A stretch of 64,000 nucleotides of DNA from a virus (taxonomy: Duplodnaviria > Heunggongvirae > Uroviricota > Caudoviricetes). Below the pieces are notes generated by a model, which was given only the letters and a program-made list of their open reading frames with translations, was not told the DNA's origin and ran no database searches. Location of the stretch: IMG/VR virus record IMGVR_UViG_3300031134_000639, one strand, 5' to 3'. This document shows, one piece after another, positions 51,716-53,683 of the stretch (position 1 is its first letter; each line of letters begins with the position of its first letter). The position numbers were made by a program, and so were the translations under genes.

Positions 51716-52636
51716 TTAGTCTTCTTCAGGAACGCTTTCCATGAACCTATCTAAAGCACGTTCAGCCGCGTGAGAGTAAACAACCCTGTCACAGGATGCC
51801 TGAATGTTGTTCATATGATCATTAATCCTACGAGTTGTCTCTTCTTTGTCGCTACCTTTGTTAATGTCGTACCGGTCTTCAATGTATGCAAGTTCAAACT
51901 TAGCTTTCTTAGCTTCTTCTATCCCAGACTCTCTTGAAGCATGAATTTCACTTCTGATTGCTTCAGCTTCTTCTTTCAGATTATCAGCATGCTTCAGCCT
52001 TGACTTGTACTCATCCATGGTCAGTTGATACATCTGTGTTGAAGTTGACCTCGTTGAGATAAGAGCGATTCTGGAAACCTCAAAGTGAGGTTTGGCTTCG
52101 TCAGGTCTATCCCCATAACGGCGGTATGGGTCTCCTTGGTCTTCATTTTTTCCAGAAGGCCAATACTCGTAGTATCTGTCAGCTAAAGCATCACGCAAAT
52201 CAATTCTGGCATCGTAGTCGCTACTGCTATTGGACAAAGCCACATAAGTGTCAAGTACACTATCAGGGAACTTGTAATCTAGGTTTTCGTTGCCAAGTTC
52301 GTAAGGGTCAGCATCCAACATGCCGCGTGGACTGTGCTCACCAATTCTCCAGTCCATTGTCTCTCCCATGCGGCTTACCATATCTGATGACTGCTCAAAG
52401 TTACTCATGTCACGACTTTTGCGAGCGGATCCAATGTTGCCAAATGCTTGAGTGTAATCCTGTTTGTCTTGCGCAGCTAAACGGTCTAACTCAATTTCGC
52501 GTTCGATGTCTTCAAGGTTAGAGCGTTCACGGATGTAAGTACTCATATCACCGTCTTTGTAGGCCTGATCAACAAGACCTTTCAGTTCATCACGAGACGC
52601 GAAACGTCCCTGAGAGTCATGGTATGGATTAGGCAT
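51716..52636 (-). CDS. MPNPYHD..GRF-leader protein, paralog 1 (unknown function)
   Basis: ORF track with RBS AAAGGAC. The first 38 aa are identical to 52753..53640. Acidic and helical. Confidence 0.75.
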   Translation of the reverse strand: MPNPYHDSQGRFASRDELKGLVDQAYKDGDMSTYIRERSNLEDIEREIELDRLAAQDKQDYTQAFGNIGSARKSRDMSNFEQSSDMVSRMGETMDWRIGEHSPRGMLDADPYELGNENLDYKFPDSVLDTYVALSNSSSDYDARIDLRDALADRYYEYWPSGKNEDQGDPYRRYGDRPDEAKPHFEVSRIALISTRSTSTQMYQLTMDEYKSRLKHADNLKEEAEAIRSEIHASRESGIEEAKKAKFELAYIEDRYDINKGSDKEETTRRINDHMNNIQASCDRVVYSHAAERALDRFMESVPEED

Positions 52637-52651
52637 AAGTTGTCCTTTTCT
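52527..52651. repeat. 125-nt near-identical direct repeat, copy 1 (5' UTR plus first ~37 codons of the MPNPYHD gene)
   Basis: I count 3 mismatches over 125 nt against 53531..53655. The remainder of the two genes is much more diverged. Confidence 0.8.
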
Positions 52652-52668
52652 GTAAAGCAGGTTGCCTT

Positions 52669-52679
52669 ATGTCTAACGG
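52669..52679 (-). promoter_or_regulatory. CCGTTAGACAT motif variant, 32 nt before start 52636
   Basis: Read on the minus strand. The same element sits before the paralog at 53673..53683. Confidence 0.45.
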
Positions 52680-52696
52680 AAAAGGAGTTAATACAA

Positions 52697-52740
52697 AAAT
52701 GGGCTTTTGCCAGTAAGTTATTACTGGCAAAAGCCCATTT
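52697..52740 (-). terminator. Intrinsic terminator hairpin (20-bp stem) plus T-run
   Basis: AAATGGGCTTTTGCCAGTAA / TTACTGGCAAAAGCCCATTT after 52753..53640. Confidence 0.8.
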
Positions 52741-52752
52741 GATAGTCTTTTA

Positions 52753-53640
52753 CTATTCTTGGGAAGACATATAACGGTCAATAGCTCGCTCAGCTGCGTG
52801 AGAGTAGATAACAGAATCATGGGCAGTTTGGATATTGCACATCTGAGAATTAATTCGTGCCTCTGTTCCTCCAGCTGGGTCATCGTTAGCTAAAGTAAAC
52901 TGGTCTTCAAGATATGCAAGCTCAAATTTGGATTTCTTTAAGGTTTCCAAATTCTCAGTTCTTGAAGCACGCACTTCTTCACGAATTGCTTCTGCCTCTG
53001 TCTCAAGATTGTCAGCATGTTTTAGACGTGCTCTATACTCGCTCATTTGGTTGGCGTAATCTACTGTTGCTTCACGGCGGGCAACTACAAGACTGTTTGG
53101 GTTTATCTCAAAGCTAGGAGAATCATCCTCGGAGAAGCCAGCCTCTACCTTATCTTTTTCAATAGGCCAATACTGCAAACTGTTGTTCATAACAGAGTTA
53201 AAATCAATTGTTCGGTCGTAGTGGCTAGTGCTGTTAGACAAAGCTACGTAAGAGTCAAGTATTTCATCAGAGAATGCATATTTCTCTTCAGAGTCACCCG
53301 CACGGTAAGGATCAGCGTCTTCCATTTCATAAGGGCTTAGCTCACCTATACTCCAGTCCATTGTTGTGCCAACGCGAGAATCAGCTTCGGAGGCCCTTTC
53401 AAAAGTACTCATGTCTCTATTTTTAGGAGTAGATGCACTTGCTTTAGAGAAAATGCCAGAAGATTCTGTAGAACCAGCCGCTAGGCGCTCTCGTTCAATC
53501 TCTCGTTCAATCTCTTCAAGATTGGCGCGCTCACGGATGTAAGTGCTCATATCACCGTCTTTGTAGGCCTGATCAACAAGACCTTTCAGTTCGTCACGAG
53601 ACGCAAAACGTCCCTGAGAGTCATGGTATGGATTAGGCAT
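52753..53640 (-). CDS. MPNPYHD..GRF-leader protein, paralog 2 (unknown function)
   Basis: ORF track. Same RBS and 5' UTR as paralog 1. Confidence 0.75.
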   Translation of the reverse strand: MPNPYHDSQGRFASRDELKGLVDQAYKDGDMSTYIRERANLEEIEREIERERLAAGSTESSGIFSKASASTPKNRDMSTFERASEADSRVGTTMDWSIGELSPYEMEDADPYRAGDSEEKYAFSDEILDSYVALSNSTSHYDRTIDFNSVMNNSLQYWPIEKDKVEAGFSEDDSPSFEINPNSLVVARREATVDYANQMSEYRARLKHADNLETEAEAIREEVRASRTENLETLKKSKFELAYLEDQFTLANDDPAGGTEARINSQMCNIQTAHDSVIYSHAAERAIDRYMSSQE

Positions 53641-53655
53641 AAGTTGTCCTTTTCT
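53531..53655. repeat. 125-nt near-identical direct repeat, copy 2
   Basis: See 52527..52651. Confidence 0.8.
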
Positions 53656-53672
53656 TGAAGGTAAGTTAGTTT

Positions 53673-53683
53673 ATGTCTAACGG
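53673..53683 (-). promoter_or_regulatory. CCGTTAGACAT motif variant, 32 nt before start 53640
   Basis: Read on the minus strand. Confidence 0.45.

Follow-up and report, generated by a model that had tools for sequence, protein, structure and literature searches.

Two neighboring genes, A and B, are located on the minus strand of the window, i.e., the whole stretch of 64,000 nt that was analyzed. The features of the locus are the following:

53673..53683, minus strand: promoter-like motif CCGTTAGACAT, copy A, first base 43 nt upstream of the ATG of gene A
53527..53655, minus strand: near-identical, putatively homogenized tract, copy A, positions -15 to +114, with the AAGGA ribosome-binding site at 53647-53651
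52753..53640, minus strand: gene A, an ORF of 295 aa with an N-terminal module, a disordered linker and a C-terminal helical bundle (predicted)
53503..53640, minus strand: N-terminal module of A, residues 1-46, with NPYHDSQGRF as residues 3-12 (53605-53634)
52697..52740, minus strand: terminator-like hairpin between A and B, 20 pairs and a T run
52669..52679, minus strand: promoter-like motif CCGTTAGACAT, copy B, first base 43 nt upstream of the ATG of gene B
52523..52651, minus strand: near-identical, putatively homogenized tract, copy B, with the ribosome-binding site at 52643-52647
51716..52636, minus strand: gene B, an ORF of 306 aa, paralogue of A with 54% protein identity overall
52499..52636, minus strand: N-terminal module of B, motif at 52601-52630
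51667..51704, minus strand: terminator-like hairpin 3' of B, 17 pairs and a T run

The order is gene A, terminator, gene B, terminator, thyX, and each of the two genes has its own promoter-like motif, ribosome-binding site, ATG and terminator. The sequence-only reading had stated that both genes share an upstream element, and CCGTTAGACAT is indeed found 5' of both. It is a variant of the promoter-like motif CCGWTAGWMAT, which has seven copies in the window (0.08 expected). Six of the seven begin 37-43 nt upstream of an ATG or ORF start, and the exception, at 61747, has no gene assigned to it.

The genes around A and B encode ThyX, an NAD-dependent ligase, a NERD protein and an ADP-ribosyltransferase. 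The setting is one of nucleotide-metabolism genes (ThyX, DNA ligase, ribonucleotide reductase) without a head module; capsid, portal and terminase genes were seen neither in the window nor in six loci of 20 kb (120 kb, from four related huge contigs). The A protein (P0001) has exact matches on contigs of 625-885 kb, and the carrier of both genes is a huge, uncultivated and probably phage-like element (contigs of 0.5-0.9 Mb). The window is rich in arrays of diverging paralogues, and it contains at least two further types of N-terminal leaders.

Neither protein matched a Pfam family (E <= 0.1), scans with PHROG and NCBIfam were also without a match, and comparison with the INPHARED phages by megablast and tblastn gave no match. 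The AlphaFold2 model had a mean pLDDT of 64, and a Foldseek search of the model against BFVD and PDB found helical bundles of a generic kind only, all at E > 0.29. According to the model, the proteins of about 300 aa are mostly alpha-helical; they belong to a small, unannotated family, with bodies that match no known fold or family. An interpretation of A and B as a toxin-immunity pair was ruled out, because both are paralogues within one family.

The similarity of the two genes is concentrated at their 5' ends. As had been claimed from the sequence alone, both ORFs are present and residues 1-38 of their products are identical. The number of differences between 53531-53655 and 52527-52651 was also reproduced exactly, i.e., 3 mismatches in 125 positions (53545, 53593 and 53605), all of them at synonymous third-codon positions. 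A fourth mismatch, again synonymous, is in codon 37, so that the tract from -15 to +114 contains 4 mismatches over 129 nt. Beyond +114 the identity is about 75% to about +146 and then 40-70%, and the untranslated spacer between promoter motif and ribosome-binding site differs at about 8 of 16 positions. Among the positions with the same residue in both proteins, the codon is also the same at 32 of 36 in codons 1-38 versus 62 of 117 elsewhere (Fisher p = 7e-5). The identity profile bore out the claim of diverged gene centers: it is non-uniform, and dS (Nei-Gojobori) is 0.19 for codons 1-38 versus 2.36 for the rest, i.e., about 12-fold lower in the segment. For the bodies, dN is 0.50 and dN/dS about 0.2.

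Could the two genes have arisen by a recent duplication, with bodies that changed rapidly through diversifying selection or targeted hypermutation and an N-terminus that was protected? The high divergence of the bodies (dN 0.50) and the frequency of diverging paralogue arrays in the window would fit this scenario. However, the synonymous sites of the bodies are saturated compared with those of the segment, which selection on the protein sequence would not yield, and the untranslated spacer has diverged as well. Furthermore, the dN/dS ratios of the bodies, about 0.2 between the paralogues and about 0.11 between B and its orthologue P0002 from the sister genome L001, indicate purifying selection, for B in particular. 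A recent duplication is thus very improbable.

The sister genomes L001 and L002 each carry a single gene, which combines an A-type upstream sequence with a B-type body. In L001 the switch from A-like to B-like sequence is at about codons 39-42, which is the 3' edge of the tract. Between B and P0002, dS is 0.37 for codons 1-38 and 0.65 for the rest, and thus the synonymous sites of the segment do change between lineages. The segment has 4 synonymous changes between A and B and 5-7 in comparison with the L001 orthologue, a gap that alone is too small for significance. As the segments of A and B are as similar as those of orthologues, or more so, although these sites change, concerted evolution is indicated rather than a constraint on the nucleotides.

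Two further sets of adjacent tandem genes, on the related contigs L129 and L127, have a similar 5' pattern. In L129, three adjacent genes have 0-2 differences over the first ~57 nt of coding sequence and diverged flanks (Fisher p = 0.0004-0.03); identity sets in only at the ATG, after three ribosome-binding-site regions that differ. A gene pair in L127 has no differences between -38 and at least +58, and a pair in L134 matches the 5' pattern in part only. Two copies in L138, which are 5 kb apart, are not homogenized, and their synonymous sites differ freely. In 12 aligned ADP-ribosyltransferase paralogues from the same window, an N-terminal leader is kept in the protein and not at synonymous sites.

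Besides gene conversion, the sequence-only reading had offered a constraint on the nucleotides of the 5' end, for example by an RNA element or a processing, docking or packaging peptide. In its nucleotide form, the 5' segment would be fixed as a functional RNA or DNA element, such as a structure for translation control or an mRNA packaging or processing signal. The identical tract extends 15 nt into the 5' UTR and takes in the ribosome-binding site, as would suit such an element. Structure prediction and covariation analysis gave a different picture: the minimum-free-energy z-score was -1.06, with 30 of 200 shuffled sequences folding as well or better, and RNAalifold of 26 homologous 5' regions yielded 0 pairs. 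The synonymous changes and the dS of the segment in the L001 orthologue, the start of the L129 tract at the ATG next to differing ribosome-binding-site regions, and the free synonymous variation in L138 also argue against it. The reading as an RNA element is already largely refuted and deserves hardly any credence, while the other half of the earlier proposal, conversion, is strengthened by the dS contrast and the recombinant gene of L001. The near-identity of the tracts is therefore best supported as the trace of a recent event between the tandem copies, either gene conversion or unequal homologous recombination, as judged from the sequences. A and B would be old tandem paralogues, and the 5' segment would have been the crossover point from which the sister genome got its single chimeric gene. 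The position of the tract at the 5' end may reflect selection on the protein, which would keep this segment recombinable, whereas the bodies would be too diverged.

The converted segment encodes most of a predicted N-terminal module of about 46 aa, which consists of an NPYHDxxG[RK]F beta-hairpin (residues 3-12) and a helical hairpin. In the model of A, a beta bridge connects residues 6 and 12 and helices span residues 15-28 and 31-55; the pLDDT is 64 over the first ten residues and 81-84 over residues 11-50. Word-indexed protein searches found 3-5 relatives only, and it was an exhaustive profile search that revealed the module: about 25 proteins match positions 1-46/52 of the profile only, each from its own residue 1. 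Judged from these matches, the module was shown to be portable: at least 25 proteins that are unrelated begin with it. The consensus, M[PA]NPYHDxxG[KR]F[AC]S.xE[LM]..I..A...GD..TY...R...E.IE, is fitted by A and B, and M1, N3, P4, H6, G10, F12, S14 and Y34 are invariant in the alignment. The module proteins with known context are encoded on contigs of 86-791 kb; in the huge contigs the surrounding genes encode tRNA synthetases, thymidine kinase and transporters, and no capsid genes were found there. Pfam scans of ten other module-bearing bodies gave nothing usable. The full module, i.e., motif and helices, was not found in IMG/VR, INPHARED or the GTDB representative genomes, and the link to ordinary phages is thus made by the 10-residue core motif alone.

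This core motif is found in phages and prophages as a junction motif, defined here as N-P-Y-H-D-x-x-G-R-F followed by [TAS][TS] and heading a module of ~130-450 aa. A and B fit this definition, with NPYHDSQGRF and AS (residues 3-14) followed by ~280-290 residues. Positions outside the search pattern are also conserved (K at -2, 81%; F/A/Y at -1, 84%; T/A/S at +10, 97%), and thus the motif is real. Searches of Pfam, PHROGs, NCBIfam, solved structures and the searchable literature yielded no description of it, its profile had no real match among PDB sequences, and a 28-aa consensus of the motif region, compared with INPHARED by tblastn, had two weak matches only (one portal, one prohead protease).

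The Pfam families of 86 viral ORFs with the motif included portal (10+3+2), MuF (10), XkdF protease (9), ADP-ribosyltransferases (13+3+3) and Zeta toxin (5). In 94 motif ORFs from prokaryotic genomes they included portal (25+2+1), prohead proteases (4+2) and several toxin domains. The suggestion in the sequence-only reading that such peptides recur in MuF-like head proteins is therefore supported, because portal, MuF and prohead-protease families are among the commonest in both sets. Portal domains end at about residue 415 and the motif follows at about 424-435; a MuF example has the domain at 634-740 and the motif at 755, and a protease example has them at 631-754 and 783. Downstream, domains of the polymorphic-toxin type are found, such as DddA-like, CdiA-CT RNase, Zeta toxin and glutamine deamidase. 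Stand-alone motif genes begin 1-2 residues before the Asn of the motif and adjoin portal and MuF genes; the 105 neighbors of 43 such genes include MuF (7), portal-family matches (5+5+3) and protease (4). In ORFs of 1,750-2,811 aa from L089, L098 and L118 the motif is present 5-7 times per ORF. On the sequence level, the motif was shown to mark a carrier-cargo junction in phages and prophages of bacteria and archaea: a portal, MuF or prohead-protease domain directly precedes it, and variable C-terminal domains of effector or toxin type follow.

These associations suggest that the module of A and B may be a head-delivery or processing tag, and that A and B themselves may associate with the capsid. 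The module would route cargo proteins to the head-assembly machinery, and A and B would be packaged or ejected cargo. With up to seven motifs in one polyprotein, a simple docking signal is a poorer match than a processing site or a recombination joint. Alternatively, the module could be a DNA recombination joint for cargo cassettes, a tag for another machinery (secretion, a proteolytic chaperone, compartment import) or a self-cleaving Asn-Pro site. Recombination at the segment does occur, the motif precedes domains of polymorphic-toxin type and is repeated up to seven times in single giant ORFs, A and B are located away from head genes, and for orphan cdiA-CT modules an exchange by recombination at the conserved sequence upstream of VENN has been proposed (PMC7662968). 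However, N3, P4, H6, G10, F12 and S14 are invariant in the protein even though the DNA of the module genes has diverged, indicating that the peptide itself is under selection. In addition, A and B are not orphan fragments but full genes, each equipped with a promoter-like motif, a ribosome-binding site and a start codon; neither is followed by an immunity-like gene at this locus, and the partners of the motif are portal, MuF and prohead-protease domains and not secretion-system domains. Together, these alternatives are less probable than a head-delivery or processing tag. Taken together, the explanation that we favor, with some reserve, is that of tandem paralogues with a converted 5' segment that encodes a portable head-delivery or processing tag.

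A much wider generalization is speculative and in our view unlikely. NPYHDxxGRF would serve tailed phages in general as a signal for loading cargo and for self-processing; it would be cut at Asn-Pro, like NPTH of FlhB or mu1 of reovirus, and the PYHDxxGRF hairpin would then dock cargo to portal, MuF or protease. Huge phages would have detached NPYHDxxGRF from the head proteins and would use it, along with at least two other leader types of the window, as an N-terminal address on dozens of stand-alone injected effectors, whose arrays would be reshuffled by recombination at the tag.

Gene conversion between tandem paralogues is ordinary, and the interest lies in which segment is converted, i.e., one that encodes a conserved and apparently undescribed motif of junctions between head proteins and cargo. 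If the motif is a loading or processing signal, it would provide a sequence rule that predicts packaged and injected phage proteins and a means of bringing foreign proteins into capsids, comparable to the capsid-targeting sequence (CTS) of T4. It would also allow the injected effectors to be listed for huge phages, in which most proteins lack annotation.

The internal proteins of T4 are diverse and share only the N-terminal CTS, which loads them into the prohead (PMC3012670). The prohead protease removes this leader. The match is one of architecture: the module of A and B is likewise a short N-terminal element that heads many unrelated bodies, some of them encoded in tandem. Unlike the CTS, to which it has no sequence similarity, it is longer (~46 aa, with a predicted helical hairpin), and genes A and B are located outside a head or late-gene cluster.

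In the MuF polymorphic toxins of temperate phages (Jamet et al. 2017, PMC5576092) and the phage polyvalent proteins (Iyer et al. 2017, PMC5512222), the comparable feature is the motif between head domains and C-terminal ADP-ribosyltransferase, Zeta toxin, deaminase or RNase domains, and the repeats of this motif that separate modules in ORFs of 2,600-2,800 aa. In contrast to the MuF toxins, A and B have no MuF (PF04233) or other head domain, no recognizable toxin domain and no downstream immunity gene, and they are not in a head module beside a portal gene. They also differ from polyvalent proteins, which have at least two effector or enzymatic domains, in having a single body and ~300 aa. The junction motif is not mentioned under 'motif' in PMC5576092 or under 'GRF' or 'conserved motif' in PMC5512222.

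The junctions of CdiA (VENN) and Rhs also have a short conserved segment at the 5' edge of variable modules, sharing of DNA between tandem copies and a role as recombination site (PMC7662968). In contrast, orphan CdiA modules are fragments with 5' homology to a full-length gene, have no translation start and come with an immunity partner, whereas A and B are complete, separate genes without one. The carrier of CdiA and Rhs is a secretion system, whereas that of NPYHDxxGRF is the phage head machinery.

The last comparison concerns cleavage. Autocleavage at Asn-Pro is a property of the NPTH motif of FlhB, YscU and EscU and of Asn42-Pro43 of reovirus mu1. NPYHDxxGRF also opens with an invariant Asn-Pro-x-His, a resemblance of four residues only, and Pfam scans of A and B found no FlhB-type domain. 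As the stand-alone genes start 1-2 residues before the Asn, cleaved cargo and stand-alone cargo would share the same mature N-terminus.

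Genes A and B, the tandem minus-strand pair sharing its first 38 residues, were compared along their length together with their transcription signals, which are as follows.

53640-52753, minus strand: gene A, ORF of 295 aa
52636-51716, minus strand: gene B, ORF of 306 aa, head to tail with A
25898, 35964, 39740, 45154 and 61747, plus strand: promoter-like motif CCGATAGTAAT / CCGTTAGACAT
52679 and 53683, minus strand: promoter-like motif CCGATAGTAAT / CCGTTAGACAT
Between A and B: terminator-like hairpin, 20 pairs and a T run
After B: terminator-like hairpin, 17 pairs

BLASTP revealed that the proteins are 54% identical overall and fully identical over residues 1-38. 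The near-identical 5' segments and diverged bodies described in the sequence-only reading were confirmed, as the two 125-nt stretches differ at three positions (53545, 53593, 53605), all synonymous. With a fixed offset of 1004 nt, four mismatches were found from -15 to +114, DNA identity was about 75% until about +146 and 40-70% beyond, and thus the identity profile was non-uniform. At sites encoding the same amino acid, the codon was identical in 32 of 36 cases within codons 1-38, but in 62 of 117 elsewhere (p = 7e-5), and dS (Nei-Gojobori) was 0.19 for codons 1-38 versus 2.36 for the remainder. Both genes lie in a neighbourhood of nucleotide-metabolism genes.

CCGTTAGACAT is present once per gene, with its first base 43 nt upstream of the ATG. 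It is a variant of CCGWTAGWMAT, which has seven copies in the window (0.08 expected). Six of them begin 37-43 nt upstream of an ATG, and the remaining one (61747) has no assigned gene. The genes starting downstream include three ADP-ribosyltransferase genes and the CCA-adding-enzyme homologue; judged from sequence, CCGWTAGWMAT is probably an element-specific promoter class. The spacer from CCGTTAGACAT to the ribosome-binding site differs between A and B at about half of its positions. Based on the promoter-like motif of each gene, the diverged spacer and the terminator-like hairpins, A and B constitute transcription units of their own and go back to an old duplication in which the promoter was copied as well.

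For the 5' identity, either gene conversion or a nucleotide-level constraint had been proposed. Related contigs were located via exact proteins. L003 and L004 have the same sequence as the window, while L001 (the sister genome) and L002 have flanks about 90-92% identical to it and a single gene where A and B sit. This gene is orthologous to A in its upstream region and to B in its body (87% amino-acid identity, codon 39 to the end); the change from one to the other occurs at about codons 39-42, i.e., where the identical tract ends on its 3' side. A crossover between the 5' repeats of A and B would give the single gene of L001, and an insertion through the 5' repeat would just as well give the two-gene state.

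Between B and its L001 orthologue, dS was 0.37 for codons 1-38 and 0.65 for the remainder, and dN/dS of the body was 0.11. The value of 0.37 between lineages means that synonymous sites in the segment change at a roughly normal rate; a special nucleotide constraint is absent. The suggested RNA element was rejected as the cause of the identity for lack of support, because the fold of the 5' segment had a z-score of -1.06 and RNAalifold predicted zero pairs for 26 homologous 5' regions. Within a single genome, the paralogues resemble each other in this segment no less than the orthologues do (dS 0.19 versus 0.37), with saturated bodies, which is the signature of concerted evolution. Together with the chimeric L001 gene, these values support gene conversion.

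The same 5' homogenisation recurs in independent relatives carrying the module, the N-terminal unit of about 46 aa. Three adjacent module genes in L129 have 0-2 differences over the first approximately 57 nt of coding sequence, with both flanks diverged, a pair in L127 is identical from -38 to at least +58 (contig end), and a pair in L134 partly shows the pattern. Two copies located 5 kb apart in L138 are not homogenised, and homogenisation was observed only between adjacent copies. In 12 aligned ADP-ribosyltransferase paralogues of the window, the leader is kept as protein and its synonymous sites vary freely, and thus homogenisation is not a general property of leaders here. The DNA encoding the module recombines between tandem copies. 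The 5' location of the conversion tracts would be due to selection on the tag, which preserves enough similarity there for homologous recombination, whereas the bodies are now too diverged for it. In L134, an intact module gene is preceded at a distance of about 400 nt by a 38-aa stop-ended module copy (174-290; MPNPYHDAEGKFCSKNEM...), which may be what is left of a tandem copy after recombination or decay.

A profile of A, B and P0002 (the B orthologue of L001) was run against 1.84 billion representative proteins and yielded 33 matches. In about 25 of them (88-473 aa), the match began at residue 1 of the protein and was confined to profile positions 1-46/52, and the remainder of these proteins was unrelated. 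The consensus is M[PA]NPYHDxxG[KR]F[AC]S.xE[LM]..I..A...GD..TY...R...E.IE, with M1, N3, P4, H6, G10, F12, S14 and Y34 invariant. The module is thus an N-terminal unit that is portable and subject to selection at the protein level. Full-length relatives of A and B are P0005-8, P0017, P0020, P0025, P0029 and P0039, and P0025 and P0029 have a different Cys-rich leader preceding a degenerate module copy. The truncated relative P0004 (154 aa, from another metagenome) is an A-type internal deletion variant, in which the C-terminal half of the body follows straight after MPNP. The AlphaFold2 model of A (pLDDT 64, pTM 0.63) predicts a beta bridge between residues 6 and 12, helices at 15-28 and 31-55 (pLDDT 81-84 over residues 11-50), disorder at 57-119 and, confidently, a C-terminal three-helix bundle at 181-294; a fold search with this model gave no match.

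The core motif NPYHDxxGRF (residues 3-12 of A and B) was searched with a degenerate DNA pattern, and was found in at least 120 IMG/VR stretches and in 96 stretches of GTDB genomes; these and the following motif figures are plain counts, not enrichment factors. Among the matches listed, conservation extended to positions outside the pattern, i.e., V/I/L at -4 (66%), K at -2 (81%), F/A/Y at -1 (84%), T/A/S at +10 (97%) and T/S at +11 (80%), and therefore the matches are homologous and not due to chance. The commonest Pfam families in 86 viral motif ORFs among the matches listed were ADP-ribosyltransferases (13+3+3), portal (10+3+2), MuF (10), XkdF-type prohead protease (9) and Zeta toxin (5), plus 2'-5' RNA ligase / Acb1-like domains and glutamine deamidase. 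In 94 motif ORFs of prokaryotic genomes, whose records include Methanobrevibacter and Nitrososphaera, portal (25+2+1) and prohead proteases (4+2) were found, as well as DddA-like, CdiA-CT RNase, PBECR1, Zeta and ART-PolyVal domains. The core motif is thus associated with effector cargo as well as with portal, MuF and protease proteins, and this association supports the suggested link to MuF-like head proteins.

In single proteins the motif directly follows the head domain (portal end about 415, motif about 424-435; MuF 634-740, motif 755; protease 631-754, motif 783), and the C-terminal module behind it mostly has 130-450 aa. Stand-alone genes carrying the motif close to the N-terminus (43) had 105 neighbours, among them MuF (7), portal-family (5+5+3) and XkdF protease (4) genes. 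The motif thus marks the junction of phage head-assembly "carrier" domains with variable "cargo", and it heads separated cargo genes too. ORFs of 1,750-2,811 aa contain the motif 5-7 times. Those of the IMG/VR contigs L089 and L098 (2,597 and 2,811 aa) have seven copies of KFNPYHDE.GRF[TA]TAD, spaced about 180-720 aa apart, and look like polyproteins of motif-delimited modules.

The module itself had no match in IMG/VR, INPHARED and GTDB representative genomes, and its putative link to ordinary phages is via the 10-residue core. Module genes were found on metagenome contigs of 86, 215, 240, 725 and 791 kb and on short contigs, with tRNA synthetase, thymidine kinase, NMN transporter, NADAR, NERD and ADP-ribosyltransferase genes among their neighbours. 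The contigs containing the window sequence have 511-885 kb. The element encodes a class Ib ribonucleotide reductase, ThyX, an NAD-dependent ligase, a RadA/Sms-like protein, a CCA-adding enzyme, a flotillin-like protein, DUF2637 and an FtsK-like protein, and its relatives also tRNA synthetases. It had no match in INPHARED, IMG/VR and GTDB representatives, and no capsid, portal, terminase or other structural gene was seen in the window or in six 20-kb loci (120 kb in all) of four related huge contigs. The element looks like a huge phage, which its gene content fits. If these elements are phages, some exceed the record of 735 kb (PMC7162821).

Further leaders and paralogue families were observed in the window. 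Twelve ADP-ribosyltransferase (PF03496) paralogues (36004-46054, 48324-49181), 11 of them in one head-to-tail array, have the common Cys-rich N-terminal leader MCR.KELGGRRCP.HTDP..(..)YNARRRELYA. A similar MC[RQ]....G.RRC start is present in a CCA-adding/poly(A)-polymerase homologue (25939-27411) and an unannotated ORF (34009-34752), and the array is immediately preceded by an ADP-ribosylglycohydrolase gene (34766-35902). A third leader type, DG[ST].C[YW][ST]G[PA].C[KQR]KH[GA], heads a divergent ADP-ribosyltransferase paralogue (18778-19686, minus strand) and is also found in P0025 and P0029, from other metagenomes, ahead of their degenerate NPYHD module. An unannotated family with the core DGG[LIV].L.DG.TY has ten paralogues of about 200 aa at 310-13157 (minus strand), and there are smaller families at 57991-60667 (three genes) and 4102-5180 (two genes).

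A capsid-signal function of the motif is a reasoned inference: the tag would bring cargo to the head-assembly machinery, to be packaged and/or processed there, and A and B would be packaged or ejected proteins. Asn-Pro autocleavage sites are known from FlhB/YscU (NPTH) and reovirus mu1, and the invariant Asn-Pro-x-His of the motif, speculatively, recalls them. Stand-alone motif genes begin 1-2 residues before the Asn, so that cleaved fusions and stand-alone cargo might share a mature N-terminus, and the repetition within polyproteins could fit a processing site.

The motif and the module themselves appear to be undescribed. The motif was not found in Pfam, NCBIfam or PHROG families, in PDB chains or in the searchable literature, and a term search in the two most relevant papers, PMC5576092 and PMC5512222, did not reveal a junction motif of this kind. 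Systems of this kind are known, in which polymorphic phage cargo has a leader or junction motif and recombination takes place at the conserved edge. T4 internal proteins, of which the capsid-targeting sequence is the sole shared part, are a functional analogue of the tagged cargo (PMC3012670). In addition, the 5' conversion tracts of the module genes parallel the conserved stretch that precedes VENN in cdiA and its orphan modules (PMC7662968).
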